A stretch of 64,000 nucleotides of DNA from Escherichia coli O157:H7 (GTDB lineage Bacteria; Pseudomonadota; Gammaproteobacteria; Enterobacterales; Enterobacteriaceae). Each line of letters starts with the position of its first letter. Within the stretch, counting starts at the first letter, position 1. The translations under genes were made by a program, and so were the position numbers. The notes under the pieces were generated by a model. It had not been told where the DNA came from and searched no databases. It was given only the letters and a program-made list of their open reading frames with translations. The stretch lies in assembly GCF_013167455.1 (NCBI RefSeq), contig NZ_CP038328.1; one strand, given 5' to 3'. This document shows, piece after piece, positions 7,976 to 32,683 of this stretch.

Positions 7976-7984
7976 GGAGGAACA

Positions 7985-8941: not shown

Positions 8942-9119
8942 TCCTTGCGGCCGGGCGTGGAAAGCGCTTTCTCACCTCCGGGGGAAATACCATAAATTAA
9001 GAGAAAAATTTGCAGTAGCCGTTTTAGAAAATCACCTAAATCGTTTAAAAGAGCGCCCTACCCATAGTGGTTGCTCATCGCCTTGTGTAACTTTTTCAGC
9101 AACGCGCGCCCTCGCCGGA

Positions 9120-10313: not shown

Positions 10314-10388
10314 AGTGAAATTTCACAAAGATCAGGATAAAAGCCACCGGCCATAGACCGGTGGCTTTGCATCAATTCAGGGGAGGTT

Positions 10389-11546: not shown

Positions 11547-11692
11547 CAGAGAGATACAGGTTTCCGACGGACAACGCTGCGGTGCTTTACTTTGATGGGG
11601 TCATTATAGTGAGCAGAATTAGTGCTGATTAGGGGGCGATTAATGCTAAGATTAATACCATATTGTTATAAATTAATGCTGAGATTGCCGGC

Positions 11693-12595
11693 ATGAAGGG
11701 GAATGTTTCAATGGCAAAAAGGGAGAACTACAACGAGCTATACCTGTTTATGCAGGTGGTGCGGGAAGGCAGCTTTACCGCAGCGGCTAAGCGGCTGGGT
11801 CTTGCTCAGTCAGGAGTCAGCCGTTCTGTTCGCGAGCTTGAAGAAAGGCTGGGCGTCCAGCTGCTGGTGCGCACCACGCGTAAACTGTCGCTGACGCAAG
11901 CAGGCGAGCAGCTCTACCAGAAGACGGCATCTGGATTTGAAATGTTAGATCTTGGGCTTGCCACGCTGGCGCACTATCGAGAGACGCCCTCCGGCACGGT
12001 GCGTATCAATGCCAGCCAGCACGCGATTGATAAATGCCTGCTGCCAAAGCTGGCGGTATTTAAACAGCGATATCCTGATATCCAGCTTGAACTGATAAAT
12101 GAGAGCCGGTTCGTCGATATCATCGAGGAAAGATTCGATGCAGGTGTCCGCCTGGGGCCTGAAGTCAGCCAGGGCATGGTCGCGGTACGCATCACGCCCG
12201 ATATGGAGATGGCAATTGTGGGGACTCCGGAACATTTTCGTCGCTATGGTTTTCCGCAAACCCCGGCGGATTTAAAGGCGCATCCCTGTATCGCCTATCA
12301 GTTTGCCGACGGCAGCGTATACCAGTGGGAACTCAATCAGGATGATAAAAAAATCACTCATCAACCCGAAGGACAATGGGCCTTTTCCGACAGCTATATG
12401 GAAGCAGAAGCCGCCCGGCTGGGCCTCGGGTTGGCCTATGTTCCTGTTGAACTGGTCGCGGATGATTTAGAACACGGTAAGCTTATCAGAGTGTTGCAGC
12501 GTTACAGCCTGCGAATGGAGGGATTGTTTCTCTATTACCCTCATCGCAACGTCTCCCCCGCTCTGCGGATGGTCATTGATACATTGAAAATCTGA
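11693..12595 (+). CDS. LysR-family transcriptional regulator
   Basis: N-terminal HTH (FTAAAKRLGLAQSGVSRSVRELEERLGVQLLVRTTRKLSLTQAG) plus substrate-binding domain; divergent from hydrolase gene. Confidence 0.8.
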   Translation: MKGNVSMAKRENYNELYLFMQVVREGSFTAAAKRLGLAQSGVSRSVRELEERLGVQLLVRTTRKLSLTQAGEQLYQKTASGFEMLDLGLATLAHYRETPSGTVRINASQHAIDKCLLPKLAVFKQRYPDIQLELINESRFVDIIEERFDAGVRLGPEVSQGMVAVRITPDMEMAIVGTPEHFRRYGFPQTPADLKAHPCIAYQFADGSVYQWELNQDDKKITHQPEGQWAFSDSYMEAEAARLGLGLAYVPVELVADDLEHGKLIRVLQRYSLRMEGLFLYYPHRNVSPALRMVIDTLKI

Positions 12596-13297
12596 ACGTT
12601 AACAACGACCGACTCTTCACTGTGCAATATTGTGTCAGGTAGTCACTCTGCGTTCAATTCCAGGGGCCGCTTTGAGCGAGAAAGAGCGGACTTATCTGTA
12701 CAAGGGGACTATCCAGCAATGGAGATCATCCAAAAGAAAAAACCACCTGGCTCCCCTCGACAACCTTAATCCGGGCATTTAGCCTCAATCAACATTTTCA
12801 TATCTGTCAGGTTACTTCATTATGAAAACCGATCAATACCGTTGTTTTTGTTGCAACAGTAGAATACGCGTATTTATCCCTCCATTTCTATTAATAACGG
12901 CAATAAACTGTTCATTTCACTGATATTTAAAATATGCATCCTTTTCAAGCTGTTCAGCGGCGTAAGAAAACGTATTAAATATGAATTCGACGATTTAACC
13001 ATTTCTGTCTGATTGGTAATCATCTGTGATTAATGCTGGTCTATTGATTACTCCAGCATTAACCGCTTAGGGATGTATTCTTCCTGTTGATATACAGCCC
13101 TCGAAAAAGAGAGAAAATAAAACTGTGTCCAATATTACTCTACCACTCCAGACCGAAGCATCGGTAGAATTAGCAGAACGACTGGTACAATAGATTGGGA
13201 TAGCGTCATTTGTCAGGTATTCCATTGCCTGACAAATGACAATTTTGAGTCAATAGACGTGCTTCTTGATCATGTCTTAAAAATTATACCATGAGCC

Positions 13298-14563: not shown

Positions 14564-15463
14564 ATGAAAATCGATCTTAATCTTTTACCCATTTTTATCG
14601 CGGTAGCAGAAGAGAGTAATTTTAGTAAAGCCGCCGCACGGCTGGGCGTTACCCGTTCAGCGGTCAGTCAGGGAATAAGACGCCTTGAAGATGCATTCGG
14701 GACAATGCTTGTAATGCGGACCACGCGCTCAGTTAATTTGACAGAAGCGGGAGAACGGCTGCATAAATCGCTGTCATTACCTTTATCCGGTATTGAGGCA
14801 GCGTTCGAAGAGATGGTTTCTGACCATGTGCCACGCGGACTTCTCAGAATCGCGGTGACGTCAATAGCTGAAGAATTTCTTTCAGGTCCGCTAATCGCTT
14901 CGTTTGCAGCAGCCAATCCAGCCGTTACGCTTGATATTGTTGTCACGGATGAGGAATTCGATATCGTGGCCGCAGGTTACGATGCTGGCGTAAGGCTCGG
15001 AGAGGTCATTGAAAAAGACATGATTGCTGTGCCCCTTACCGGCAGGCAGCGTGAAATGGTCGTTGCCTCTCCCTCCTATCTCGCAGCCAACAGCACACCT
15101 GTTCATCCGCGTGAACTTGTGAATCATAAGTGTATCGGCTGGCGTCAGTCCCCGGAGGTTGCGCCTTATCGCTGGCCATTTGAAGAAAACGGGAGAGCTT
15201 TCGACCTTGCGATTGAACCGCAGATTACGACTAATGATCTGCGTCTGATGTTGAGGCTGGCTCTTGCCGGCGGAGGAATAACAATTGCCACTCAGGAAAC
15301 TTTCAGGCCGTATATTGAAAGCGGTAAGCTTGTATCTCTGCTTGATGACTTTCTTCCACAATTTCCGGGCTTCTATCTGTATTTCCCACAGCGTCGCAAT
15401 ATTGCACCAAAGCTCCGCGCTCTGATTGACCACGTTAAGGAATGGCGGCAGCAATTGGCTTAA
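14564..15463 (+). CDS. LysR-family transcriptional regulator (divergent from SDR gene)
   Basis: HTH (FSKAAARLGVTRSAVSQGIRRLEDAFGTMLVMRTTRSVNLTEAG); 299 aa; classic divergent LysR-target arrangement. Confidence 0.8.
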   Translation: MKIDLNLLPIFIAVAEESNFSKAAARLGVTRSAVSQGIRRLEDAFGTMLVMRTTRSVNLTEAGERLHKSLSLPLSGIEAAFEEMVSDHVPRGLLRIAVTSIAEEFLSGPLIASFAAANPAVTLDIVVTDEEFDIVAAGYDAGVRLGEVIEKDMIAVPLTGRQREMVVASPSYLAANSTPVHPRELVNHKCIGWRQSPEVAPYRWPFEENGRAFDLAIEPQITTNDLRLMLRLALAGGGITIATQETFRPYIESGKLVSLLDDFLPQFPGFYLYFPQRRNIAPKLRALIDHVKEWRQQLA

Positions 15464-15589
15464 ATGTCTGCACCTGCATTGCCTGATGTCAGAACAGTAT
15501 TTTGATTAATTGCCAGGGTTACAATGGCACAAATGCGGCACAGGAGGAAACGTGGTGTATTTAAATATGGGGTAACTACTTGATTTAAA

Positions 15590-15608
15590 TGGTGCGATAA
15601 TAGGAACC
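15590..15608 (-). repeat. Degenerate direct repeat of the tRNA-Thr 3' end (distal att of the P4-like island)
   Basis: TGGTGCGATAATAGGAACC matches TGGTGCCGATAATAGGAGTC at 28475 with one deletion and two mismatches. Confidence 0.45.
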
Positions 15609-16138
15609 AATAATCGCCACCAACACAATGATTTTAATACATAAATTAAAATAGAAGATTTAAACTACACACACCCCTATACACATTGGTGAAGGCGTTC
15701 GCTTTCCGCGCATTCTCAAGGCAGAAAAAACTTTTTTTGGGGGAAAACTGTTCATACTACTCATTGTGTTTTTTTTCATTAATATTCAAAAAGATATGAA
15801 ATTAACGATTGATAAGAAGTGAACACTTTACTGTTCACCTTGACTGATTAATAAGTGCATAAAAACCTAATTTTTGAGCACGGAAGGTATTTGTTCCTTA
15901 CCCCATTTTTTCTCTTTAGTCCAGTACAACAAAAAATGCGCCCAACAGAAAACTGTTTTGAATTTAAATGCAATCGCTTTGTAGTGATTGTAACGTAAGT
16001 TGATTTGATGGGTGCGATTTTGTTTAGCGATAATGGTATGTTGTAAAAATCATTTCGTTGCAATAAAATTGCATCGCTACATTTTATAGACAATATCAAT
16101 TAAATTTTAATACTCATTATTAATTTTGAGGCTAACAA

Positions 16139-17095
16139 GTGACTAGTTATTCAAACTTTTCCAATCAAATAAAAGAAACCATCAATAATAAATTCGATCA
16201 TGAAATTCATGATTGGGACATTATAAAAAACTCAATCACAACTTTAATAAATAAAAATATCCATGGTGCAGGTAGAAATATCGTTGATTTTATAGATTTA
16301 GGTAACTGGGATTTTATTTCAAACTTTTCCTTTGATGACTCTACAAGAAGACTTGAATTAGAGTGGCACCCCAATGATAAATTCCATATATATATTGAGT
16401 CCGTTGTGTTTGTCGAGTTTAATGACACTATATATGCTTTCTTAAAGGGATACTATCACAATCAGTTATCTCTAAATAGAATATATAATACAAAATGCTC
16501 TTCATGTTCATTTGAAAACTCAGGTTCTTATATGGTAGACGTTTATAGAACGGTTAAAAGAGTAAATGAGACAATCCAGACCCCAAATATAAATTGCTAT
16601 ACTACATGTATTTTAACAAGGCCCGCAAATGGTCATGTTACATCTACAGGCTTCTCACGAAACCTCATGGATGCGATAAATATTTCATTAGCAGAGCACA
16701 AAATAGCCTCTTTACATAATGAAGTCATGAGTATTGAGGAATATGATCGTGATTCTTTACAAGAGAAAGGAAATACTGCCAGGAGATATTTAGAATATAT
16801 TCTCATGCTTGTTAATATTCGTATAATGCATTTAAACAACGTTCAATACCAAGAGCAAATGCTAGGTAGTTTAGTTTCTGTTATTGAGGCTCTGGACTAT
16901 GAACCATTAATGAAAAATGATGTTGAAATTACAAAGGACATCCTTAATGCTTGCAGCCACCACGGGGGGGTTAGAATTGAAAAGAAAGATGTAATTTTTT
17001 CTTTGGAAGTTATTGAAAACTTAATTAAAGCCATAAAGAAAACCGACATAAATAAATTACAACTCGATGGGATGTTTAAATCAATTCAAAAATAA
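16139..17095 (+). CDS. Hypothetical protein, very AT-rich orphan cargo gene inside the satellite island
   Basis: 318-aa ORF with GTG start, no recognisable motif, Asn/Ile/Lys-rich; lies between the distal att repeat and the primase 3' end. Confidence 0.45.
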   Translation: MTSYSNFSNQIKETINNKFDHEIHDWDIIKNSITTLINKNIHGAGRNIVDFIDLGNWDFISNFSFDDSTRRLELEWHPNDKFHIYIESVVFVEFNDTIYAFLKGYYHNQLSLNRIYNTKCSSCSFENSGSYMVDVYRTVKRVNETIQTPNINCYTTCILTRPANGHVTSTGFSRNLMDAINISLAEHKIASLHNEVMSIEEYDRDSLQEKGNTARRYLEYILMLVNIRIMHLNNVQYQEQMLGSLVSVIEALDYEPLMKNDVEITKDILNACSHHGGVRIEKKDVIFSLEVIENLIKAIKKTDINKLQLDGMFKSIQK

Positions 17096-17227
17096 ACATC
17101 ATCTAACAATGAATTAGATGCATTTTCCGCTGACGCCTTAGCATATAACTTTTAAATTTTATCGATATATATTTTGAGATAATTTCCTGTAGCGGATTTA
17201 AGACCGGCACAGCCGGTCTTAGGTCAG

Positions 17228-19618
17228 TTATTTCGCTGCAAACTCATCGCATTTTGGCAACCAGTCAGCATTGCTTTCCTCTCTTAGGGCCAGATTAGTC
17301 TGCATTCCTTGATTGGTCCGTCGTTTCTCATACTGCAGCCCATATTCCTTGAGCATTAACGGTAGCCCCTTGCCAAACATGGTCAGACTGAGCGTATTTT
17401 TATAGCCGTTAGCCTCCATGTAGACCAGATAGGCATGGTAGAGGTAAGTTCGAGGCTGACGTGGAACAATATTAGCGTTCCCCATAAACATGCCCGTGGT
17501 GTCAGGTAGGACCTCAAGGTAGCCGCAAAAATCAAAAGCTGAATCAGCATCACGTTTGATGGTGAGCGCTTCATCGGAGTTCTGCTGTGACTGAAGCAAT
17601 GTCCTGGCACTCATTGGGTCGCTGAAACGCTGCATAAGCTGGCGAACAATCACCGCTAGCTCACTGGCAATTTTCTCTTTGAGCTGGGTATCGCGTTCCT
17701 CCGGGGCTATCTGGTCGGGGAAATGCAGGATCACCCTTCGGCGTGAAACTCCACCACTACGATCAGTGAAGCGCATCGGATTATTGTTCACAGCCAGGAT
17801 GACCGCCGGGATGTGGGTTGAATAGGCGTTCTGATATTTGGGATCAACGGATACCGCATCGCCGCCAGTGATGGCTTTTAGTCCGGCCCCGTCACCGCTC
17901 CACTTTTCCTGGTCGGGAAGTCGAATCAGTGAAAAACCTATTAACGCAGCTCGTTCTCTTGGCGACTCAAGCATTTCAATGGTTGCCGAGGTCGCGTTAT
18001 CTTCACCCGCCAGCATGGTTGCTATTTCAGCAAGAATACTCTTTCCACTTCCGCCAGGGCCAGTGACCTCCAGAAACAGCTGCCAGTCATAACGGTTAGC
18101 CAGCACCATAAACAATGCAGCCAGAATAATGTCCCGTTTTTCAGGATTAAAACCTGCGGCACGATCCAGCCAGCGCCAGAATGCCGGGGCATGGGTTTCC
18201 AGTGACTCACCGTCAACGGGCTGCGTGTAATCCACCTCGCACAGCGTACGTAACCAGTGCTTCTTATCGTGCGGGCTGAACAATCCTGTCCGGGTATCGA
18301 GCACACCGTTGCGAAATCCGATAAGTTGCCGCGCCGGATTCTGCTGTTGCGGAACGATCAGTTTGAGGGTTTCCACGAGAGACGCAATTTTCGCGGATGA
18401 AAAAGGTGCGTCGAGGCGCTGAAACAGCGCAGCGACATCACGGGCAAAATCGGCGTAATAGATAACTTTCCAGGCCCCCGCCTCATAGCGTGAAAGGAGC
18501 TGCCCGTTCGGGTCTACTGCCAGTGAATTTTTATAGTGATCCACTACCCTCTGCGCTTTTTCGCTGACGCTCAGCGCGGTAAATTCAGCTTCGCTCATTG
18601 TGTCGAAGGGGCTGGCAACAGCTGGTTTTATTACTTCATGAATTGCATGCCGGGTGGCTTCTTCGCCGTTTTGCGTGAATGCATCGTTCCAGTCACCAAA
18701 CACAGGCGGGAGCGCCATTGTGCAATTGCAGGCCCCGGTAACAGCTGCGCCCCTTGTTTGCCCCGCACCGTTGAGATCGCGGTCAGCAGCAATAATTATC
18801 TGGTGCGTTGGGTACTCACTGCAGGCAATGCTCGCCAGGGAAAGGAAATTGACGGACGAAAAGGCCACCATGACAGCATCGCCAGTCAGATAGTTGATAG
18901 TAAGTGCGGTGGCATATCCTTCCGCTATCCAGAGCCGTTTGGCTGCTTTGGCAGTACCTTCAACCAGGTAAAAGGCATTCTTAACCTGACCGCCTTTAAG
19001 GAAGCATTTGCCCCCATTAGCGTTGATTAACTGCAGATTTACCAGCTCTCCATCTGCATACAATGGAACGACAAGATCTCCCGCGCGAAATGCCACACCA
19101 CCGACTTTATGCATAGCGGTTAATTCCCGGCAAGGCAGTGCAGGAAACCCTTTACTCGTCAGATAGGCATTGCCAGTGGTCTGGCGGGACTTATCAAACA
19201 AACGGGCAGCCAGCACTGCTGCAGCTTTTCTCCCGTCCTCTTTTTCAGGAGAACCAGATTCAAGCATTCCCTGAGATACTGGCAGCAGGTTTCCGATAAT
19301 GCCGTTTATTCTGTCTGCCGCTTCACTAATGCCTACATCCAGTACTTTACTTACAAGCGCCAGGCCATCACCTGCCCCGCACTGGTTACAGAACCACGTT
19401 CCCCGCCCTTCCTGGTCATCAAATCGAAAGCGGTCTTTCCCGGCACAGACCGGGCAGGGCTGGTGCCGATTTTTCAGTACATTTACGCCCAGCGCAGGTA
19501 AAATTCTTGACCAGTGACCCCGAGCTGCTTTCTCAGCCTGGCTAACTTTCATTCCTGACATTGTGCGGCCCTCCTTAGTGCAGCGCTGGTTTGTTGAGGT
19601 GACGGGAACAAAGTTCAT
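17228..19618 (-). CDS. P4 alpha-like primase/helicase (N-terminal start uncertain)
   Basis: Zinc-binding [14 protein letters not shown]...CNQCG motif, primase/Toprim region and P-loop ([11 protein letters not shown]) in a roughly 780-aa protein. Confidence 0.85.
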
Positions 19619-19898
19619 CCATGACCGTCATTCCGAGCAGTGAGAGAACCGGACAGGCTTTAAGCGGCCCCGACTCCATCAGATCCGAAAGCAACGCGCA
19701 GGCAATTTCCAGCCCTCTTTGCTGCCCATGCTGGCGCAGATAGAACCCTTCCAGCTCGCGGGCTATGGCATCTTCAAGTTCAGCGAGCGTCAGGCCGGAA
19801 TAACGTTCCTGATGATTGCTTAGAGCCAGCCAGGCACAGGCAACGGCACGGCGATACAGAGCGGCACGAAGTGCCAGAAGAGATTCACAGCATATCAT
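19575..19898 (-). CDS. Hypothetical satellite-phage protein upstream of primase
   Basis: 107-aa ORF with start overlapping the stop of the upstream ORF; left-operon position. Confidence 0.35.
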
Positions 19899-20119
19899 CA
19901 GGCCACCTCCGCATTCATCAGGTCGTCATGGCAGCGTTGCACCACTCCATCCAGTTGCTCTGTCATCAGATAAATGAGGGAAACCAGTTGTTCGCATTGG
20001 GCACCTGCTGGCTTTTCATAACAGTCCTGCAGGGCTGCCATGCCAGTTACATACTCACCCACATTGCGTAAATGTTTCAGCCTTACAACATCGTCGTAGG
20101 AAATCTCAAACTGGTTCAT
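19898..20119 (-). CDS. Hypothetical small satellite-phage protein (epsilon-like position)
   Basis: 73-aa ORF translationally coupled to downstream ORF. Confidence 0.35.
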
Positions 20120-20669
20120 AGCGTCACCTCCCCGGCAGGCAGCCGTGCAGAAAGGGAGAGTACATAATCTCGGACTAGCAAACGGCGCGCGGAACGCTCA
20201 TCGCAGGAGACAGTGCGAAGCATACAGATGCGGGGGTGAGTGTCAGCACGGCGGATTGCGGCAAACACAAAGACATATTGCGGGTGTGACGGGGTGAGGA
20301 TTGTAGCCATGATGGCAGCCTCCAATAAGTAGCGGTTATTGCTACCACCGGAAACGCCAATTTCACTGGTGGCAGCCCGAACGGGGTTGGCGTAACCGGC
20401 CTTATTGGAAACCGGCCAGCCCGAAGGCTGCCCCGCCCGGACTACCATTATCTCGATAGAACCATGGTGTAAGCATAAACACCACAGCCCTGAAAATGGT
20501 TGTGCCTGAGCTACGACGTAAAAAAAGACGCAAGGGGCGTCAATTGTCGCCAATAAGTTATACGGAACGCCAATTCCGGCTGCCGATTTTGCGACAGCGG
20601 AAAAACTATACCTGGAAATGACGACAGTAAGCAAGCCAGAATAAAGGTATTTAATGTATGCAGGTATCA

Positions 20670-20930
20670 TCATGCATCACATCCCCGCCCACGGGCGCTG
20701 ATGCGGTCCGCCATCCATGCGCTGACCTCAGACTGTGCCCAGGCGACATTTTTACCGCCAAGCGGGATCTGCTTCGGAAACGCATCGCGGCTGATCAGGT
20801 CGTAAACGGTCGAACGGGACAACCCGCATAAGTGCATCACCTCAGGCAGGCGTAAAAATCGCTCATGATGGTTCGATACAGGAAATAATGGCGCAGCAGG
20901 AGCTGGCGCAGACACAGAAATATTACGCAT
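20670..20930 (-). CDS. alpA: AlpA-family phage transcriptional regulator / excisionase-like
   Basis: [40 protein letters not shown] matches AlpA/MerR-like HTH. Confidence 0.7.
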
Positions 20931-21863
20931 TTATCTACCCTCTTTAATTTCCACAACAGTCCGGATGAATTTATCCGGGTTCAGGTAGTTCCTTATTATG
21001 TGTATATAAACCACCTGCGCACGCATTTTTTATTTAGCGTCACATATTGATTTTATGGAATTTAAAGCCCGATTAAACCATATAAAATGACATAATAAAT
21101 ACCATGCCTGCGGACTATAAATACAGGAGCATTAATAGGAACTACCATTCACCCAGGGTTTACTATCCTATGGGTCATTGCACCTGATAGTGCTAACCCC
21201 ACCGCCAATACAGCAAGGCAGTACAACTTCTACACGAGGCCTTGCATTGCAGGCCCCAATTTCCGGGCATATTTTTGAATCGCATCCAACTTATAAACAT
21301 TGGGCCTGCATAAAAACCTTGATATTAAATAACATCACCTTAAATCGTAAAATATATCCGAATGAATCCATAAAGAACCGGACAGATCTAGTTTTATAAA
21401 AATCAGTATGAAATGCAACACCATGGCCAGAGGCGAAAATGTTATTCCCCGGCAAAAACATGCAGTCTATTTATGTGCCTGTTGAATACTCCTGAATAAG
21501 GGTGAATAGTGGTGAGGAGCAAAAAACAAATAGCTACGAGGAATAAAAAAACCACCCATTATGAAAAAATACCATAAATAATTTTATTCCCATGTGAACA
21601 GTTATGAACAGTCGATGAATACTGCCATGCCAACCCTTCACCTTATAACCTTCTGTATTACCTATTTTTTTTACCTAAGTGAATAGTAGTGAATAGTTAA
21701 GGTAAGTCTGAAACAGCCTTAGTTAAACGAGGCCTTTTCTGGCTAGCCAAAAGAGGTCCGGGGCGGTTCAGTCTTTGTCTTGTCGCTCGCACAATGGCGT
21801 TCAATGGCAGCTTTGTATGCATCACAGCACAATTGACACCACGACAAACCACTAGGTGCTGAC

Positions 21864-22616
21864 ATGACAATCCCAGAACAGAACAATAACCCGATCGTTG
21901 AAATTTCTATCCCTGTTTCGACGCAACAGGCGCTTGAGAAAGTGAATGCCACCAAATCTGCATGGCTTGAAGCACGTCGTCAGCAAAAAGCGGCAGCGGA
22001 TAATATTGCGACAATCCGCCAGCGCCGCGCTGAAATGGAAGCCACGACGAACGCCCTGAATGAGGAGTGGCGCACGCTATTTCGTGAAAGTCAGGGCGTA
22101 GTCTCAAAGGAAATGAAAAAACTGCGCACGGAAATTGCGCTGGGACGAGAAACGCTTGAGGATTTTGATGAGCTGCTGGCGGCTCAGGAAAGCGAAAATG
22201 CACTTTTGCCGCAGGAGGCTGCGGAATTAGCCGGAAAGTATATCCACGCGCACGACACCCTTGTGGGTATTCGCGCAAAACAAATCTGGGAAGATTTTAT
22301 GCAGTCGCATGGAAAAGCACTAATCCAGACACTAAGCCTGCTCAAATCAACAATGGGCAGGGAAGCCAGCGCAGTTGTCGGTGTGGTGCATTCAGTTAAT
22401 GACCCGGACACACTGCTGAAAGATTTTATTCATAAACATATCACCAGACCGGCTCTGACTAACGATGCGATGCCCGAACAGGACCCCGTGTTTAAACTGG
22501 CGGGAGTTGCCCCGGATTATGCGGCCCGTCTGGATTTCAGTAATAAACTCTCTCCAGCAGCTATGCATAAAATGAAGGTTCGTCAGGAACGTGCTGAGAA
22601 GGAGAAAGCAGTATGA
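21864..22616 (+). CDS. P4 Sid-like (capsid size determination) or Psu-family helical protein
   Basis: 250-aa strongly alpha-helical protein, first gene of the rightward satellite operon; size matches Sid. Confidence 0.4.
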   Translation: MTIPEQNNNPIVEISIPVSTQQALEKVNATKSAWLEARRQQKAAADNIATIRQRRAEMEATTNALNEEWRTLFRESQGVVSKEMKKLRTEIALGRETLEDFDELLAAQESENALLPQEAAELAGKYIHAHDTLVGIRAKQIWEDFMQSHGKALIQTLSLLKSTMGREASAVVGVVHSVNDPDTLLKDFIHKHITRPALTNDAMPEQDPVFKLAGVAPDYAARLDFSNKLSPAAMHKMKVRQERAEKEKAV

Positions 22617-23164
22617 TGGCCCGAGTCACTCCAGACCAAGCGCTTATCAGTTTTAGAAATGCCCGTATTCTGTGGGCTGGACATAGTGAGAGCCGAAAAG
22701 CCGTTGAACAACAGATAGAATCACTCCTCACTGCCATGGAAAAACCAGCAGATTATGCTCGACAGCTCGAATTACAGCGGGAACATCTGGATGTGCTGAA
22801 ATGGCAAATTAACTGTGCTGCGCGCGAATGCATTTACTCGCAGCATCAACTGATGGAGGCCTGCACAGAAGACGCTCTCAGCAATTTTATGCAGGCGAAT
22901 GGAGCAGCCCTGACATCTGCACTGGCTCCGTTCCTGAAGGGGCGCGGAGGGGTTGACGTTGCGTCCCGTATATTACGCAATGCTCTGGTTCGCCAGCTGG
23001 CAATAACACCGCCTGAAATTGCCGGGGATTATCGTATGATTCTGGATGAATCCGGTGTGATGCCTGACCCCATGATGGTTCGTGATTGCCAGAGCTCTTA
23101 CACCCCTGCACAACAACTGCGCTTTCAGCAACGTCTGGATTACATTAACGGCATGCAGGAGTAA
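22613..23164 (+). CDS. P4 Psu-like (polarity suppression) protein
   Basis: 183-aa helical protein translationally coupled to preceding gene; size and position match Psu. Confidence 0.4.
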   Translation: MMARVTPDQALISFRNARILWAGHSESRKAVEQQIESLLTAMEKPADYARQLELQREHLDVLKWQINCAARECIYSQHQLMEACTEDALSNFMQANGAALTSALAPFLKGRGGVDVASRILRNALVRQLAITPPEIAGDYRMILDESGVMPDPMMVRDCQSSYTPAQQLRFQQRLDYINGMQE

Positions 23165-23169
23165 TATTA

Positions 23170-23442
23170 ATGGCACTTAAATGTCCCGAATGCGGTACGA
23201 CGGCACACGCCAGAACCTCCGCCTATGAAGCACCATCGGTTAAACGCTCATGGTATCAGTGCCAGAATCTTGAATGTTCCTACACATTTACCGCACTGGA
23301 AAGTGTGGATACGATAATCATGAAGCCCCGGCGCAATGAACAGGAATCAGAGAAAGCACAAATGCCGGAAAAACAACAGCAAACTCTCAATCGCTATGGC
23401 TCCGCGTCAAAGCTGTCAAGCCGTCAGCAAATTCCTGTCTGA
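23170..23442 (+). CDS. Ogr/Delta-family zinc-finger late transcription activator
   Basis: CPECG...AHARTS...YQCQNLECSYTF matches the Ogr/Delta C4 zinc finger. Confidence 0.8.
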   Translation: MALKCPECGTTAHARTSAYEAPSVKRSWYQCQNLECSYTFTALESVDTIIMKPRRNEQESEKAQMPEKQQQTLNRYGSASKLSSRQQIPV

Positions 23443-23462
23443 TTAGCAAAAAAAGCCCACGT

Positions 23463-23489
23463 AATCCCGGTCCAGTACTGGGATTTTTT
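23463..23489 (+). terminator. Rho-independent terminator after the ogr/delta gene
   Basis: AATCCCGGTCCAGTACTGGGATTTTTT: GC-containing palindrome followed by T6. Confidence 0.55.
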
Positions 23490-23851
23490 ACGCCTTTTCC
23501 CTGGCTGGCCTGAGAGCGCATGAGTGCATGTCTATAGCGCATGAAAACGCATGATTCTCATGCACCATTTTTGACGCGAAAGCCCTTGTGTGGTGGCTTC
23601 TGAGACGATTTGCGGAATGCATGAAAACCAGTCTGTTAAGCGAAGCGAGCAGGCGTGGGGGGCTGCGCGCGCTAAGGGGTTAGATTATAAAATATCAAAC
23701 GCCGGTGAGATCCATTATTGTGGAACCACCCGAAGGAAGTGTAGAGGCGAAAGTACCCAAAATAATTTTGCAAATTATTTAGAAATGAACTGAGCGCTCG
23801 AAACGAAATATAATTTCGAGCACCCCAATTAGCAGTTATATTTTTAATGTA

Positions 23852-24418
23852 TTAAACAGGATAAAAACCAGAGCTTCCATTCTTATTTAAGTTATGGATT
23901 TTATTTGCATCATTAATTTTTATTTGGAACGTCGGACCTTTATTCTCAAGAATTACAATCTGGAAATTATAGTCCCTTTTGATTAATGCGTGATAAAATG
24001 AATCACTGAGACTGACGCTATTAACATCCGATAGAGAACCCCCTCTATCTTTATCAAAGTGCGTCACTAATGGACTATCAAGCACAACAAATCCAATGAA
24101 TGGATTCCCTTTTCTTGATAAAAATTCCGCAAAGCAAATGGTAAATATAGCATGCATTACTGCACGGGTACCTTTACCAAACATTCCTCGGCGTTTCCCA
24201 TTGATATTAAAGTCATATGTATCTTCGTCAAATCGCACTTTGTTATCTTTAGAATTTTCAAAATTTATATCATTCAAAAAGTCTTGCATCGCTATTTCTA
24301 TATCATACAAATCAGCTACTGTTAAGGAGTCAAAGTCCTCGGCGGAGTATTTAAGTTCGTCAACATCATCTTCTTTATCTTGTAATGAAGATAGAATGCT
24401 ATGTTTTGTGTGATCCAT
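23852..24418 (-). CDS. Cargo ORF F: C-terminal ABC/SMC-like ATPase half (signature-like motif + Walker B-like)
   Basis: GKGTRAVMHAIFTICFAEFL followed by FIGFVVLDSPLVTHFD resembles ABC signature/Walker B/D-loop; start overlaps stop of ORF E (TAATG). Confidence 0.5.
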   Translation of the reverse strand: MDHTKHSILSSLQDKEDDVDELKYSAEDFDSLTVADLYDIEIAMQDFLNDINFENSKDNKVRFDEDTYDFNINGKRRGMFGKGTRAVMHAIFTICFAEFLSRKGNPFIGFVVLDSPLVTHFDKDRGGSLSDVNSVSLSDSFYHALIKRDYNFQIVILENKGPTFQIKINDANKIHNLNKNGSSGFYPV

Positions 24419-25008
24419 TAAAAGATTGTCTTTATATTCATAAAGTGATTCAAGAGATGAATGTATTGTTTTATATTTTTATCTTCTAACGTCTTAAAAT
24501 CACTTTTTTCTGATTGATAAATTTCATTAACATCATTTTTTCTTAACATAATTAATTCATGTTCGCGAACATTAGATCCGATTGATTCAATTAATCCTTT
24601 CAGCTGGCTTTTGATTTTCAATTTTTCTGCATTACACGACAAAAAACAATCATCATATGATATTTCATTTTCTTTTTTTTGCGGTGTATTACAGAACTCA
24701 CAATAAATATCTGCAAAATTATTTAAATAGAAATTCGCCTGTGATACAACATCTATTCTTTGTAGATCTATAAAGTATTGGTCTTTAAGAAGACTAAATC
24801 TTTCAATGAGTAATGATAAGTATTTTTCCCTGTCACTGATTGAATATAATTCATCACTTAACTCTTTTAATAATTGCTTCTTATCATCAAGTGCATCAAC
24901 AATACCTTTCAATATATCTTTCGATGATTCAATATCTTGCTCTACTTTCTCAAGTTCTCTTGAAACAATGACTTGATCATATTCAGGATAAATTAATTGC
25001 GCTTTCAA
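24418..25008 (-). CDS. Cargo ORF E: coiled-coil segment, likely middle part of the same ATPase
   Basis: 196 aa, K/E/L/D-rich helical composition; only TTG start; same frame as ORF D, separated by one TAA. Confidence 0.45.
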   Translation of the reverse strand: MKAQLIYPEYDQVIVSRELEKVEQDIESSKDILKGIVDALDDKKQLLKELSDELYSISDREKYLSLLIERFSLLKDQYFIDLQRIDVVSQANFYLNNFADIYCEFCNTPQKKENEISYDDCFLSCNAEKLKIKSQLKGLIESIGSNVREHELIMLRKNDVNEIYQSEKSDFKTLEDKNIKQYIHLLNHFMNIKTIF

Positions 25009-25038
25009 TTCCTCATAAATATTTGCAATTTGATTTTT

Positions 25039-25698
25039 TTAAAAATATCTTGCTTTTTTATTTGGTTTTTCTGCTAAGGAGTTAGTATCATCTCTCTGAG
25101 TTAAAAGGAATTTAAATTCAGACTTTCTTTTTGTCTCCTCGCTAGGAATATCAGAAAGAATTAACGACTTCTCAGTTAACACTCTTAATTCATCAATACA
25201 AAAAAATTCAAAAACATTATTAAGATTAAATTTATGAAGAGTATTACTTAAGTTTGTTCTTACTTTAGCCTCTTTGAAATTCAACCTACCATAAAAGTAT
25301 GATGAAAAACTCTTTTTAGACGAAGCACTTTTGGAAAAAACCATCAACAGATTAGCTTCACTAACATTTTCAATGCTCGAATCATATAATCTGTAATGGG
25401 CGCTATCCTGAAGAGACCTCTCAATTGTCATTACCCTACCTTGAAAATTAAATTCCAGATAGGCTAAATCATAACCTTGAGCATGATCGATATCTTTATT
25501 TTTTAGTTTTTCACTCCCTAATAAATATCGAATCAAATAATATATGTATGTTTTTCCAGAGTCAGAACCACCATATAAAATAGTCAATTTAGAACCAAAT
25601 TCAATTATAGCATCTAATTTATTGAATCCGGTTACCTTTATTTTTCTGAACGTAAAAAAATTGTCATTCATAATTAAATTCCATATCATATTTGCCAA
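25039..25698 (-). CDS. Cargo ORF D: N-terminal ABC/SMC-like ATPase head (Walker A)
   Basis: FRKIKVTGFNKLDAIIEFGSKLTILYGGSDSGKTYIYYL: SMC/AAA_15-like N-terminal strand plus Walker A GxxxxGKT. Confidence 0.55.
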   Translation of the reverse strand: MANMIWNLIMNDNFFTFRKIKVTGFNKLDAIIEFGSKLTILYGGSDSGKTYIYYLIRYLLGSEKLKNKDIDHAQGYDLAYLEFNFQGRVMTIERSLQDSAHYRLYDSSIENVSEANLLMVFSKSASSKKSFSSYFYGRLNFKEAKVRTNLSNTLHKFNLNNVFEFFCIDELRVLTEKSLILSDIPSEETKRKSEFKFLLTQRDDTNSLAEKPNKKARYF

Positions 25699-26137
25699 TT
25701 TTATTTTTTATAATTGATTGCAACTGCTCATCAGGAATATCACTATATAACTTAACCACCAAATTTATATTATGCTCCATCTGCGCAACATATTCATTAT
25801 GTAGAGAATTTGTAAATGCATATGTTTTTTCAGAAGCTTTATATACAAAACCACGATGTGTATAAATTTTTGAGGCTAGTTCATAGCCTTGCAACAAAGC
25901 CAATGATTCTAAAACAATCTCTCGTTTTAGGGCTAACTGAGCATCTCTACGGGGTATTGGAGGATGAAGACTAATCTCTTCAGGTAAAAAATCCTTAAGA
26001 TTTACTAAAATAAAATCAAAACAAATAAGCCGTTCAAGGCTTAATGAAGAAGGATAAATAGCGACGAGCACTTTCGCCATTCGACATGCCACTTCTAAAC
26101 TTGAATTATAAATTCTAACCATTATCTCACCGTCCAA
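25664..26137 (-). CDS. Cargo ORF C: hypothetical protein
   Basis: 157-aa ORF, AT-rich, overlaps neighbours by 16 and 35 nt; no recognisable motif. Confidence 0.4.
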   Translation of the reverse strand: MDGEIMVRIYNSSLEVACRMAKVLVAIYPSSLSLERLICFDFILVNLKDFLPEEISLHPPIPRRDAQLALKREIVLESLALLQGYELASKIYTHRGFVYKASEKTYAFTNSLHNEYVAQMEHNINLVVKLYSDIPDEQLQSIIKNKIGKYDMEFNYE

Positions 26138-26739
26138 ATTACTTCACCATCATTAACCAAATGATGGCATATTCCTTTTTTATCATTTGCTTCACATATT
26201 TTTGATAGTACTGAATGTGCAATTGGTGTCAGAACAGCCTGCTTCAAGACTGCATTACACCTAATAAATGCATAATTATGGTCTTCATAAAAGACGGGTT
26301 CAATTGAAGATGAAATGTAACATTTCAATGCTTTGAATACATCATCTTTAAATACTTCGCGGACAAAAACCTCAAGCGAAGATGCAAAATAAAAATCATT
26401 TCTACTATTATTAAAGTGTCGTCTGTATGGATCATCAAGCTCTAAGAAAGAACTATAAGTTTTATTTCCATGCTCTGAATAGGCTTGAAGCAGTGCATTA
26501 ACATATACAGACTCTTTTTTTGAATTGTATGTTGGAATTTCATTTGGAGGGATTCTCACGACATACAGCTCGTTAAAGTACTTAAAATAAAGGTGTGTAT
26601 TTGCAATATCATTTAAAATCAATGATAAGGGTAGAGAGTAAAAAATACTAAAATCAAAATCCTCAATATATTTTTTTATTTCATCATCTAATGGAATATC
26701 AATCTTTTTAGTTATTTTTTTGAAATTGCTGAATCCCAT
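26122..26739 (-). CDS. Cargo ORF B: hypothetical protein (possibly C-terminal part of a frameshifted gene with ORF A)
   Basis: 205-aa ORF overlapping ORF A by 28 nt across an A7 homopolymer. Confidence 0.4.
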   Translation of the reverse strand: MGFSNFKKITKKIDIPLDDEIKKYIEDFDFSIFYSLPLSLILNDIANTHLYFKYFNELYVVRIPPNEIPTYNSKKESVYVNALLQAYSEHGNKTYSSFLELDDPYRRHFNNSRNDFYFASSLEVFVREVFKDDVFKALKCYISSSIEPVFYEDHNYAFIRCNAVLKQAVLTPIAHSVLSKICEANDKKGICHHLVNDGEVIWTVR

Positions 26740-27017
26740 GAATCAAGGACTGCTTTTTTAAGCTCGTTTTTATTTTTCAATAAATTAGAAAATGTAGTAG
26801 ATAAATCATAGGGTGCCACAAAAAAGTACTTCTGAGGGATGGGATAATCACCATTCAGAGTAAAATAGATAAGTTTTCCAAACTCAACTACAACATCAGA
26901 GAACCCTAAACTTTTTTTGTACAGTTTGCATTGATAATTATCCCAAGAATAACCTTCTACGTTAGGATCCGATTTATATCCAACAACGTCTCTACCTTTA
27001 TCTCCAGCTCCTCCCAA
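26712..27017 (-). CDS. Cargo ORF A: Mrr-cat-like PD-(D/E)xK nuclease motif protein (no ATG start; possibly disrupted)
   Basis: GGAGDKGRDVVGY ... YQCKLYKK resembles the Mrr catalytic motifs (GDGGIDG ... QxK); frame stays open upstream to ATG GGA TGA TGA at 27087-27098. Confidence 0.4.
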   Translation of the reverse strand: MGGAGDKGRDVVGYKSDPNVEGYSWDNYQCKLYKKSLGFSDVVVEFGKLIYFTLNGDYPIPQKYFFVAPYDLSTTFSNLLKNKNELKKAVLDSWDSAISKK

Positions 27018-27130
27018 ACGTTCGCTCCACGGGTAATCATCTGATTTACAGACAATAAGCCAATCATGGACAAATACCTCCCATGTTCATCATCCCATGT
27101 CAATATTTCCGAAAGTGGTTGAGACACAAA

Positions 27131-28312
27131 TTAACTCCTTTTTAGTCTTTCAAATATCAAATTACTGTACCAGTCCATCATAGACTTCCTTCCACTAAAA
27201 TATTGAGCATGGTTATAAGTCCCCCTAATAGAATTTTTATCTACATGAGCCAACTGGATTTCAATCCAAGCACTCTCAAAACCTTGCTCATGCAGGATTG
27301 TAGAAAGGGTATGACGAAAACCATGTCCAGTGACTTTTCCTCCATACCCAATACGCTTAATGGCTTGATTTATACTCGCTTCGCTCATTGGCCTATTCGG
27401 ATCGTTCCGCCCTGGAAAAACATAACGATAGTTCCCTGTCATGATCTTGAGTTCATTGAGTAAATCTACCGCTTGAGATGATAAGGGCACAAGATGTGGC
27501 CTACGCATTTTCATCCTTTCAGCAGGAATTTCCCAAATAGCGTTATCCAGATCAAATTCTTGCCATAATGCCGCGCGTAATTCGATGGTTCTCACACCCG
27601 TAATCATCAGTAATTTCGTGGCTATCTGGACAAGCTTACTCCCGGAGTAACCCTCTAAGGCACGTAGAAAATCAGGTATCTCATCAGCTTTTAGGAATGG
27701 GAAATGATTGGATTGGTGTACTTCGAGAGCGCTGGAGAGATCAGCCGCAGGATTGTACTCCGCCCTACCCGTTGCAATTGCGTAGCGAAACACTTCGGAG
27801 CAACGCTGCCGCACTTTGCGCATTTTCTCCAACGCACCACGTTTCTCAATTTTACGCAGAACGTTCAGCAGCTCTAGCGGTTTAATCTCTCCCACAGGCC
27901 TTGTTCCGACATAAGGAAAAATGTCGTTCTTAAACGCTTCCATGATGTCTGATGCATATCCCGCCGACCATTTAGCAGATTTAAGTTGATGCCACTCTCT
28001 GGCTATCTTTTCGAAGGCGTTCTCTGACTCTGTTTGCATAGCTAGCTTTTGCTCTTTTCGAACCTCACTAGGGTTCTTTCCTTCTGCCACAAGTTTTCGA
28101 GCTTCATCACGACGGGAACGAGCATCGGCAAGGGTGATCGTTGGGTAAACACCAAGCGAGATCATTTTGGGTTTGCCGGCATAGCGATAGCGGAACCGCC
28201 AACTCTTGCTTCCATTAGGTTCTATAAGTAATGACAACCCTAGCCCATCTCCAAATGTATAGGCTTTAGCTTCAGGCTTAGCGCGGCGAATCTGCATATC
28301 GTTTAAAGGCAT
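27131..28312 (-). CDS. int: P4-type tyrosine integrase
   Basis: N-terminal P4-integrase-like region (AKAYTFGDGLGLSLLIEPNGSKSWRFRYRYAGK); C-terminal catalytic region with RxxHGFRHT..Y residues; adjacent to tRNA-derived att. Confidence 0.85.
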   Translation of the reverse strand: MPLNDMQIRRAKPEAKAYTFGDGLGLSLLIEPNGSKSWRFRYRYAGKPKMISLGVYPTITLADARSRRDEARKLVAEGKNPSEVRKEQKLAMQTESENAFEKIAREWHQLKSAKWSAGYASDIMEAFKNDIFPYVGTRPVGEIKPLELLNVLRKIEKRGALEKMRKVRQRCSEVFRYAIATGRAEYNPAADLSSALEVHQSNHFPFLKADEIPDFLRALEGYSGSKLVQIATKLLMITGVRTIELRAALWQEFDLDNAIWEIPAERMKMRRPHLVPLSSQAVDLLNELKIMTGNYRYVFPGRNDPNRPMSEASINQAIKRIGYGGKVTGHGFRHTLSTILHEQGFESAWIEIQLAHVDKNSIRGTYNHAQYFSGRKSMMDWYSNLIFERLKRS

Positions 28313-28474
28313 GTGTATAGGAATCCAGACCGAACAGGAACATATACACAATCCTATACACATTCAGTACCGGATTCTACTGGATGGTTACGGACTACTA
28401 TGGACTTAAAAGAATAAAAAATGTTATAAATCAGAGATTTTATGGACTAATACGGACGTTTGAGGAAGTTGAGA

Positions 28475-28520
28475 TGGTGCCGATAATAGGAGTCGAACCT
28501 ACGACCTTCGCATTACGAAT
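28475..28520 (-). repeat. 46-nt 3' fragment of tRNA-Thr (thrW-like): integrase-proximal att of the P4-like island, not an intact tRNA
   Basis: Reverse complement ATTCGTAATGCGAAGGTCGTAGGTTCGACTCCTATTATCGGCACCA is the anticodon-to-CCA part of tRNA-Thr(CGU) as recalled; 5' half absent. Confidence 0.7.
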
Positions 28521-28559
28521 TATAAGAATCCGCTTCTAATTCAAAGCATTACCCCATCA

Positions 28560-29273
28560 ACACTGCGCTCACACGTCCCACCACATCAAAACATGTAAAG
28601 CCTTGCAAGCCATTGCGAGGCCTTATGTGTCTCAGTTTTGTCCCACCTTGTATTACGACTTGCATAGCCAATGAAGATAAACGTGACGACAAACGGCGCA
28701 GCAGTCTTCTTTTCTTTCACGACTTCTCCAGCATGCATACCTTTCTGCCATGACTGAAGTGAATGCCTGTTATGAGCGAGGATTGGCCCAGATGAATCGC
28801 CCTGGACTGTTGCGATCGTGAAGCCATAGACTGGGCCGCAAGCACGGGAGGTTACGATAAAGCGACAGTGCAGGATGTCATGTTAGGAGCGATAGAAAAA
28901 CGCTTTGGCGATAAAGTACCGGAACAGTCCATCCAGTGGCTGACAGATAACGGTTCAGCGTATAGAGCGCATGAAACACGGCAGTTCGCCAGAGAGTTGA
29001 ATCTGGAGCCCTGCACAACGGCAATCAGCAGTCCTCAGAGTAATGGAATTGCAGAAAGGTTCGTGAAAACGATGAAGGAAGACTATATCGCGTTCATGCC
29101 GAAACCGAATGTAAGAACGGCATTGCATAATCTTGCAGTGGCGATCGAACATTACAATGAAAACCATCCGCACAGTGCGTTGGGTTATCGCTCTCCGCGA
29201 GAATATCGACGTCAGCGGGTAACGTTAACTTAAGATACACCCCCTGTCTGGAAATAAGGGGGCAAGAACAATG
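28560..29273 (+). mobile_element. 5'-truncated IS2-like (IS3 family) element with terminal inverted repeat
   Basis: OrfB C-terminus ([21 protein letters not shown]...[14 protein letters not shown]) followed by IS2-like end TGTCTGGAAATAAGGGGGCAA; left part degenerate, starts next to tRNA fragment. Confidence 0.55.
28868..29233 (+). pseudogene. IS3-family transposase OrfB C-terminal fragment
   Basis: 121-aa ORF covering only the end of the DDE integrase core; upstream frames broken. Confidence 0.6.
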
Positions 29274-29274
29274 A

Positions 29275-30027
29275 TCAGATTCCCTGGTGAGTAAGAATTT
29301 TACTTTCTGAACTCCTCTGAGAGTATTGACTTGGAGAAACACCAAAATAACGTCTAAATACATAAGTAAAGTATGAGACACTGGCATAACCACAGACCTT
29401 AGCTACTTTACTAATAGGATAACAACGAGTGCTGAGTAAATATTCAGCCATTTGCATCCTCTCATCAAGTATGATCTTACTGAATGATACCCCCTCTTCT
29501 TTCAATTTCCTCTTTAGTAAACTTTCGCTGAGATATAATCTTGATGATATATCCTTAAGACGCCATGGTGCAGATAAATCCGTATGAATAATCGTTTTAA
29601 CTTTAGCCCCTGTGCTTTTCAAACATCCAAACAGAAATACTCCAAATTGTTTTTCAGAAGAAAATGCAGAGAGACATGTAAAAGCAATAGACTCATCAAA
29701 AATTTCTATGTATTCAGCACAGTGATTAGCCCAACTAATTAATCCTTTAATTAAACTGAAGTCAGCAAAGTTTATTTTTAAATAAGATGGATATTCCCTA
29801 CAATCAGAAATATCCCTTAAGTTATTAGCTTTCAAATAGCGACTAATAAACTCAGCGCCAAAATCCGCCACTATCACTCTTTCAGGATATGTCAGGAAAA
29901 AATCTCTAGAGCTAGAGTCGACAAGTACAGATGAACCTCTCTCCAGAAACACACTCTCTTTTCCGAAATAAACATCAAAGGACTCCAAAATCAATATAAC
30001 TGAACATGTAGTTGCCATATCATCCAC
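29275..30027 (-). CDS. AraC-family transcriptional regulator (AT-rich, horizontally acquired)
   Basis: C-terminal dual HTH region (ISKVAKVCGYASVSYFTYVFRRYFGVSPSQY); 250 aa. Confidence 0.7.
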   Translation of the reverse strand: MDDMATTCSVILILESFDVYFGKESVFLERGSSVLVDSSSRDFFLTYPERVIVADFGAEFISRYLKANNLRDISDCREYPSYLKINFADFSLIKGLISWANHCAEYIEIFDESIAFTCLSAFSSEKQFGVFLFGCLKSTGAKVKTIIHTDLSAPWRLKDISSRLYLSESLLKRKLKEEGVSFSKIILDERMQMAEYLLSTRCYPISKVAKVCGYASVSYFTYVFRRYFGVSPSQYSQRSSESKILTHQGI

Positions 30028-30746
30028 CCAATTTAACTGAAACCAGGATGAAGTATATGTATATAAAGTTCACTTTGCCAAACTTCAGTATAAAAAACCA
30101 CTAAAAATAGGGTGTGATAAAAAATACCGTAACAATAAAGCAAAGGATTATAAATTCCGTTACAGTTACAAATGATACTCAAGAAACAATTCCTTAGGAA
30201 AAACTTATTTACAGCCAATAAGTAAGACACTTATATGATATCAAGTTTTCATAAAACATAACTAGGCTAAATAGCTGCGCCTAATACCGCTACACTTTTG
30301 CCAGCCCATGTTTGCCTCCGGGTATTGACCCCTTCTCTACGCAACTTCAGTTCCCACCACCAACTTTGCGGCAGCTTTGTAGGATCAATGTCTAAAAGAA
30401 TAATGGTGACCGATAAGAAAACGACTGAATAACTGCAGATTTTCGCTCGAAACCTTCCTGTCAGATCCATAGCGAATCAAGTGCTGAATGTCACAGTATC
30501 GAACAGAAAACAGTGACGATCTAACCCTTCAAGAATATTCTACGATTGTTCTGTTTAGGAAAAGCAAGGCGGGAAGTCGGGAGATAAGTCATTGATAAAG
30601 TGGCGGAGAGAGGGGGATTTGCCCCCCCGGTAGAGTTGCCCCTACTCCGGTTTTCGAGACCGGTCCAATCATCAAACGAAACATAAAATTAATTCACATT
30701 ATGAGGAAAAGTATCTTTTTTGTACTATGTAAATTCAAAGACTTAG

Positions 30747-31616
<870 letters not shown>

Positions 31617-32258: not shown

Positions 32259-32672
32259 ATGATGCCAGTTAGCCATAATCTCTGCATTTTCTTAAACGTT
32301 GGTTTGGGAGAAGCGGCAAAACGGGATGTGGGGACAGGGGAAAATCAGATACCGGACATGGCCTCTTTTGCCAGTGGTGATGGATGGATGAAATTACCCA
32401 ACGGGAAAATCCTGCAATATGGTCGTGGTGCGGTTACGCCGACATTATCGACGCAAACAATGAGAATTACATTCAGCATCCCTTTCTCCAAAAAAGCGGA
32501 CTGCGCCATGCTTACTCATTCTGGTGATGGCGGTGCGCCTTTAGGCGCTGGGCGAGGGTTCGTGATGACTGCAGAAGGCCCAACGTTAACCGGCTTTAAT
32601 TCTGCTTACAGAACGTCATCAACCAGCGACACGGTATCGATGAATTACAGTTGGTGGGCTGTTGGTGAGTAA
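32259..32672 (+). CDS. Alternative tail-fibre C-terminal variable cassette (silent orientation)
   Basis: ORF begins at the crossover site (…NVGLGEAAK…) and lacks its own N-terminal domain; followed by its own assembly chaperone. Confidence 0.5.
   Translation: MMPVSHNLCIFLNVGLGEAAKRDVGTGENQIPDMASFASGDGWMKLPNGKILQYGRGAVTPTLSTQTMRITFSIPFSKKADCAMLTHSGDGGAPLGAGRGFVMTAEGPTLTGFNSAYRTSSTSDTVSMNYSWWAVGE
32287..32312 (+). repeat. gix/pix-like recombination site (left inverted repeat of the invertible segment)
   Basis: TTTTCTTAAACGTTGGTTTGGGAGAA; its reverse complement matches 34178-34203 over the first 14 nt and about 20 of 26 overall. Confidence 0.6.
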
Positions 32673-32683
32673 TTTTATTCAGG

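Follow-up and report, generated by a model that had tools for sequence, protein, structure and literature searches.

The stretch of DNA analysed here, which we call the window, is 64,000 nucleotides (nt) long and comes from Escherichia coli O157:H7 (contig NZ_CP038328.1 of RefSeq assembly GCF_013167455.1). The element in question, at positions 15606-28491, is a P4-like satellite prophage, the one known as Sp2 in E. coli O157:H7 Sakai, and it lies next to a second and larger prophage, both of them at the threonine tRNA gene thrW. A preliminary description, made from the sequence alone, had proposed a P4-like satellite bounded by repeats of a tRNA-Thr 3' end and tandem accretion of islands at one tRNA gene. 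The finding is already known in that Sp2 has been annotated and studied since 2001 and was functionally assessed in 2009, and what we add is small, namely, a left attachment (att) core that appears to be derived from attP, the reassignment of an insertion sequence (IS) fragment and an AraC gene, a decayed Lamassu system, and a gene, orf318, with a HEPN-like fold. The genes of the satellite were identified with Pfam, Rfam, PHROG and PADLOC profiles and by blastp against P4. The features, among them several open reading frames (ORFs), are as follows.

15590-15605, minus strand: distal att site of the satellite, TGGTGC-GATAATAGGA, with 16 of the last 17 nt of thrW, one C of CC being missing
15606-28474, minus strand: body of the satellite, equal to Sakai Sp2, which is annotated, including the int-proximal core, as 12,887 bp
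15676-15686, plus strand: candidate arm-type integrase binding motif CCTATACACAT, near the distal att site
16139-17095, plus strand: orf318, a low-GC orphan cargo gene between alpha and the distal att site
17228-19561, minus strand: alpha primase-helicase, 73% identical to P4 alpha over 771 amino acids (aa), with the domains Zn_Ribbon_Prim, Toprim_3, D5_N, DUF5906, and Pox_D5
19575-19898, minus strand: cnr-like DUF5375 protein, a homologue of P4 ORF106 (71% identity)
19898-20119, minus strand: 73-aa protein, phrog_10110
20116-20673, minus strand: Ash-family or 'Icd-like' ORF, 68% identical to the P4 'cI' ORF and overlapping the immunity RNAs
20365-20452, minus strand: C4-type antisense RNA (Rfam C4, 84 bits against a gathering score of 45 bits)
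20521-20598, minus strand: isrK-type RNA (71.9 bits)
20559-20611, minus strand: c4-a1b1 target element
20670-20930, minus strand: AlpA/Vis-type excisionase-regulator (PF05930, E = 1.2e-19), 63% identical to P4 ORF88
21864-22616, plus strand: homologue of the capsid size determination protein Sid (phrog_6165, E = 5e-96), 23% identical to P4 Sid over 243 aa
22613-23164, plus strand: Psu homologue (PF07455, E = 4.8e-42), 31% identical to P4 Psu
23170-23442, plus strand: Ogr/Delta zinc-finger late activator (PF04606, E = 1e-16) of 90 aa, a single unit like P2 Ogr
23618-23680, plus strand: divergent cos-like region, syntenic with P4 cos and identical at 41 of 59 positions (69%) to the P4 cos junction
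23852-27127, minus strand: Lamassu (ABC-3C) hotspot cargo, GC 0.30, components recognised at E = 1e-31 to 1e-49
25039-25671, 24418-25008, and 23852-24418, minus strand: LmuB, split in three ORFs (profile positions 3-199, 231-412, and 428-608)
25664-26122, minus strand: LmuC, intact
26122-26739 and 26712-27127, minus strand: LmuA, split in two ORFs (PADLOC profile positions 44-140 and 141-333)
27131-28312, minus strand: P4-type tyrosine integrase, 38% identical to P4 Int over 404 aa, with Arm-DNA-bind_3, Phage_int_M, and Phage_integrase domains and conserved catalytic motifs
28311-28363, no strand assigned: two inverted copies of the candidate motif CCTATACACAT, between int and the proximal att site
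28475-28520, minus strand: 46-nt fragment of the thrW 3' end, TGGTGCCGATAATAGGAGTCGAACCTACGACCTTCGCATTACGAAT

The presence of int, alpha, AlpA/Vis, the cnr-like DUF5375 gene, Sid, Psu, Ogr/Delta, and a C4-type RNA bears out the naming of the element as a P4-like satellite, and alignment of the junctions confirmed that it is bounded by repeats of the thrW 3' end. The 46 nt next to the integrase match the last 46 nt of thrW exactly, as had been stated, and they are the top local alignment to thrW in the window, both strands considered (score 92). The first 17 nt of this fragment, 28475-28491, are the proximal att core of the satellite and the full 46 nt are the distal att site of the large prophage, which is SfV-like. 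No tRNA gene was found within the 64-kb window by ARAGORN, again as had been stated, and the intact gene and the integrase of the large prophage had been predicted to lie beyond the window end. For positions past 64000 we read extended coordinates from NZ_CP066753.1, which is in register with the window and differs from it by 3 single-nucleotide polymorphisms and one inversion at 32294-34196. There, intact thrW, a tRNA-Thr(CGU) gene, is found at extended 66695-66770, which is 2.7 kb past the window end, and it is flanked by a tyrosine integrase on one side and by proA/proB on the other. The junction alignment gave three co-oriented cores, at 15590, 28475, and extended 66695, and the full tRNA is present only at 66695. 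In other words, every boundary is marked by a direct repeat of the 3' end of the tRNA, and the intact tRNA is found only at the outermost integrase. The preliminary description would have failed if no tRNA-Thr gene were nearby or if the repeats did not align to it; the gene is nearby and the repeats align.

At the left boundary, a degenerate 19-nt copy had been noted at 15590-15608. A real thrW repeat is present but it consists of 15590-15605 only, and the ACC that follows is DNA of the element. The native chromosomal flank from downstream of thrW lies directly left of 15590. Chromosomal homology to K-12 (window 15125-15605) and to genomes with an empty site ends exactly at 15605, and in the empty-site genomes the same flank runs straight into the 3' end of intact thrW.

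The occupancy of the site was followed by building artificial junctions and seeking them in 5426 complete E. coli genomes. The empty site, consisting of the LysR flank, thrW, and proA, was found at full length and at up to 99% identity in 948 of the 5426 genomes and, therefore, the sequence left of 15590 is native DNA that lies just downstream of thrW. Four O157 genomes have, at 100% identity, the junction in which the int arm of the satellite is joined to intact thrW and proA, O55:H7 DEC5A has it at 99.8% identity, and all five carry the complete satellite directly at thrW without the second prophage. The tandem junction (window 27950-29050) was found in 281 genomes. The distal junction is identical in DEC5A and the four satellite-only O157 genomes. 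Thus, the empty, the satellite-only, and the tandem states all exist in real genomes, which upholds tandem accretion at one tRNA gene. Many E. coli O157:H7 chromosomes match the window region with 100% identity, and the satellite region is 100% identical across hundreds of O157 genomes.

The left core has a single C at the position where thrW has CC. This single-C form, TGGTGCGATAATAGGAAC, is common to the window, Sakai, and O55:H7 DEC5A, and it was also found in a diverged satellite of an O169:H41 strain and in four IMG/VR contigs, and these five further junctions adjoin five distinct right-arm sequences. Because the form recurs beside five other distinct arms, the comparison of junctions argues that the left repeat is not degenerate by decay and that it is best explained as being derived from attP. 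A short att repeat that seems to be degenerate can, in such a case, be a faithful hybrid of attB and attP. We also considered whether the loss of one nucleotide from the left core could be a lineage-specific lesion behind the failure of Sp2 to excise; this was rejected because the O169:H41 relative and the four metagenomic or viral contigs have the same form. Tandem accretion at thrW has occurred independently in IMGVR_UViG_2869822064_000005 (1-13246) and in a second contig. In these independent tandems the order is satellite integrase and arm, single-C core, a second integrase-bearing element, and intact tRNA-Thr(CGU), and in one of the two contigs the second element has weak DNA similarity to alpha and int of the window satellite. 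The 11-nt motif CCTATACACAT occurs in three exact copies in the 64 kb, each within 165 nt of a satellite end, where 0.51 copies are expected by chance; three copies were reached in 1 of 100 shuffles. These copies are plausible candidates for arm-type integrase sites.

The order of integration, which we infer from the occupancy states, would be as follows. A P4-type tyrosine integrase would have inserted the satellite into the 3' end of thrW, the att core being the last 17 nt of the gene. Since the attP of the satellite would read TGGTGCGATAATAGGAAC, with one C where thrW has CC, the strand exchange is likely to have taken place 3'-terminal to this C, somewhere in (A)TGGTGC. The regenerated thrW would keep CC and the distal junction (15590-15605) would inherit the single C. 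O55:H7 and some of the O157 genomes would have retained this satellite-only state. Later, on the way to O157:H7, the regenerated thrW would have been entered by an SfV-like phage with an attP sharing 46 nt with thrW. This second integration would have set the 46-nt fragment (28475-28520) against the satellite integrase and would have moved the intact tRNA 38 kb away, beyond the window end. The satellite and the SfV-like prophage are adjacent only through their shared attB.

As for the present state of the satellite, its int, vis/alpA, alpha, sid, and psu genes are apparently intact, and it has an Ogr-like delta and a C4-type immunity RNA. In Sakai, Asadulghani et al. (2009, PMC2669165) detected no circularization, replication, or packaging of Sp2, and the resident P2-like prophage Sp13 is defective, being without most of the morphogenetic genes (PMC2669165). 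Because of these results, and because there is no epsilon gene, cos is divergent, and the Lamassu system is dead, the satellite is most likely quiescent and largely stranded. The SfV-like phage is not a P2-type helper because it has an HK97-type head and a P27-type terminase. We give a probability of about 0.9 to the whole account, that is, that P4-like Sp2 integrated at thrW, that an SfV-like phage integrated later at the regenerated thrW, and that the satellite is now quiescent or stranded.

Several points weigh against this account. Taken by itself, the left copy does not reach statistical significance, because 6 of 30 shuffles of the window score at least 27; we take the repeat to be real despite this result because the flank homology to K-12 and to the empty-site genomes stops exactly there. 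The attP sequence of the satellite is a reconstruction. A search of IMG/VR for free attP, with the pattern TTGAGATGGTGC[N0-1]GATAATAGGAAC, found none that would come from a circular satellite; each of the four matches proved to be an integrated junction, lying in a tandem array or at a distal end next to other flanking DNA, and every one of them is single-C. The failure to excise was measured in Sakai, which is another strain than this one, and without a helper phage. Finally, the order of integration is drawn from the states that the lineages carry, and the four satellite-only O157 genomes could be secondary losses of the SfV-like prophage and not the ancestral state.

If the order of integration were the reverse, the SfV-like prophage or an Sp1-type remnant would have been first at thrW and the satellite would have entered the displaced 46-nt fragment later. 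Since this fragment holds the complete 17-nt core of the satellite it could, in principle, act as a secondary attB, and it is known that an incoming phage can use the att site of a resident prophage, as in the case of Sp10 at the Rac attR (PMC2669165). We regard the reverse order as improbable, however, because DEC5A and the four O157 genomes have the same satellite at an intact thrW, with 99.8-100% identity at the junction and no SfV-like prophage, and the distal junction is identical in all these genomes. The reverse order would demand that the SfV-like prophage was later lost, and lost precisely, in each satellite-only genome.

The features to the right of the 46-nt fragment are the following.

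28521-64000 and on to extended 66694, minus strand: SfV-like prophage of 38 kb, with its integrase and intact thrW (66695-66770) beyond the window
28799-29233, plus strand: IS3-family transposase fragment, near the end of the SfV-like prophage
29275-30018, minus strand: YdeO/GadX-like AraC regulator, near the end of the SfV-like prophage
30843-31616, plus strand: LEM-3-like GIY-YIG nuclease gene, near the end of the SfV-like prophage

The IS fragment, the AraC gene, and the second prophage had all been noted to lie beyond the satellite and all are present. When the attP of the large prophage is reconstructed from its integrase end, the 46-nt core, and the sequence from 28521 onward, it is 98.7-99.6% identical to SfIV, SfV, SfI, and SfII through 125 nt past the core, and 79% of 25 kb of the prophage aligns to SfV at 96.8% identity. 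Because the attP arm of the SfV family accounts for the 125 nt directly to the right of the 46-nt core, this comparison places the IS/AraC segment inside the prophage, and the IS3 fragment, the AraC gene, and the GIY-YIG gene are, on this evidence, cargo of the SfV-like prophage and not a separate island. That the IS3 fragment and the AraC gene (28521-30230) are a third thrW element, stacked between the satellite and the large prophage, is highly improbable. In its favour, the GC content of this segment is below that of the prophage body, a truncated transposase is present, and none of the phages in the collection matches the reconstructed attP farther than 125 nt past the core. Against it, the region from 28520 to the structural genes of the prophage has no additional thrW-like repeat (other local alignments score 23 or less), the 125 nt next to the core are the SfV-family arm, the thrW core, the SfV arm, and the IS fragment are found together at 99.5% in an O9:H10 genome with no satellite integrase matched alongside, and the Sakai annotation places the IS/AraC genes in Sp1. 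It follows that cargo beside an att fragment should be assigned by comparison with phage attP arms and not by proximity.

The identity of the satellite with Sp2 is seen in the RefSeq annotation of Sakai (NC_002695.2), which has 'prophage Sp1' at 300042-310627 and 'prophage Sp2, P4-like phage' at 310628-323514, with the same boundaries and junction sequences. The two satellites agree in gene order and in the broken AAA-ATPase (LmuB) pseudogene, and the junction sequences are identical at each of the three thrW cores. They differ in the neighbouring slot, which has a full-length 38-kb SfV-like prophage here and a 10.6-kb Sp1 remnant with a pseudogenised integrase in Sakai. The thrW locus has been named a 'compound prophage' in long-read studies (PMC8190617). 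It illustrates tandem accretion at a tRNA attB in textbook fashion and would be useful for teaching and as a benchmark for calling the boundaries of elements.

The satellite resembles P4 (NC_001609) in the order of its parts, which is int, variable cargo, cos region, late operon, immunity RNA and vis, the cnr-like gene, alpha, and att, in having a C4-type immunity RNA, and in integrating into the 3' end of a tRNA gene. The Rfam family C4 is what we take to be the family of the P4 CI RNA. The target of the satellite is thrW whereas that of P4 is leuX. The late operon is sid-psu-delta in the satellite and sid-delta-psu in P4, and delta is a single Ogr-like unit of 90 aa compared to 166 aa in P4. 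DNA of the late-operon region gave no match in a search of the phage collection in distant mode, and the comparison with P4 was made at the protein level. Unlike P4, the satellite has no homologue of epsilon, there being no blastp match to P4 epsilon among its ORFs, and its cos is divergent; no match to the P2/P4 cos 19-mer within 3 mismatches was found anywhere in the window. The cos-like block differs by small indels from that of the O169:H41 satellite. An epsilon homologue is located in Sp13 and not in Sp2 (PMC2669165). In the seven-component scheme for P4-like elements, namely, int, psu, delta, sid, alpA, epsilon, and alpha (Moura de Sousa and Rocha 2021, PMC8628076), the satellite has six of the seven components and counts as a 'Type B' variant, which is still P4-like under that scheme. 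The 73-aa protein probably matches a family of about 75 aa that is present in 61% of P4-like elements and absent from P4 (PMC8628076). Because the C4, isrK, and c4-a1b1 RNAs overlap the Ash-family or 'Icd-like' ORF, the annotation of this ORF may be partly an artefact of the RNA-coding immunity region that lies beneath 20116-20673.

P4-like satellites have an anti-phage hotspot between psu and int (Rousset et al. 2022, PMC9122126; PMC8628076). The window satellite is alike in having variable low-GC cargo between the late operon and int, beside the cos region; it differs in that its Lamassu cargo is pseudogenised and in having a second variable gene between alpha and att. At this hotspot P4 has gop/beta/cII in place of Lamassu, and the O169:H41 satellite at thrW, which is without orf318, has Gabija-like genes (an ATP-dependent nuclease and a UvrD helicase). 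The split ORFs match successive parts of the PADLOC profiles of LmuA and LmuB, and the Lamassu pieces are flagged in RefSeq as frameshifted or as pseudogenes. Thus, the satellite does not have intact LmuA, LmuB, and LmuC together, and its Lamassu system is broken in O157:H7. Since the system is dead in that lineage it should not be counted as active defence there. In O55:H7 DEC5A the breaks are different, LmuB being in two pieces and LmuC having an internal stop. The different patterns in DEC5A and in the window show that decay of Lamassu continued independently in both lineages.

The second variable gene, orf318, has no matching family in Pfam, PHROG, NCBIfam, or PADLOC. Its product has a beta-rich N-terminal domain and a HEPN-like fold in the C-terminal half, with R215, R216, E219, and H274 as invariant residues, and the gene is patchily distributed across Enterobacterales. 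P4 has no gene between alpha and att (PMC8628076). We make the tentative and rather doubtful suggestion that orf318 might be an undescribed single-gene anti-phage or abortive-infection determinant, the interval from alpha to the distal att site being a second slot for variable cargo, and, separately, that the asymmetric attP might limit strand exchange to the final 6-7 nt of thrW.

With regard to the large prophage, its integrase and attP are 98.7-99.6% identical to those of SfV, SfIV, SfI, and SfII, which are serotype-converting phages of Shigella with a P22-type attP that matches thrW. In the Shigella Sf phages, the genes for O-antigen modification, gtr, are next to attP, a position that is held here by the IS3 fragment, the AraC gene, and the GIY-YIG gene. 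The AraC regulator is probably PatE (z0321, O-island OI-8), a lead that comes from PMC10877973. The 1.9-kb segment at 32294-34196 is inverted relative to NZ_CP066753.1 and has 20-nt overlaps at both ends. It is the invertible tail-fibre and tail-fibre-assembly segment that adjoins pinE, and the two assemblies have caught opposite states of the switch.

The left part of the window has ecpDE-ykgJ-yagU-paoABCD. The K-12 element CP4-6 has the same attB, thrW, and its distal 49-nt thrW fragment, beside the yagP LysR gene, is orthologous to the repeat at window 15590. CP4-6 differs in being 34 kb long, in its longer tRNA fragment with CC intact, and in having intF inverted at its far end. There, at 295696-297205 of K-12 NC_000913.3, the P4-type intF lies beside the displaced 49-nt fragment, which is the opposite of the usual arrangement of tRNA and int and suggests a rearrangement or a composite origin. 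The segment 8996-15124 of the window, from paoD to the yagP-like LysR gene, has no counterpart in K-12 MG1655. It contains a major facilitator superfamily transporter, an alpha/beta hydrolase, a LysR regulator, a ykgR fragment, a hypothetical gene, a short-chain dehydrogenase/reductase family oxidoreductase, and an N-terminal part of a LysR gene, and it is either a deletion in K-12 or an O-island that adjoins the att site.

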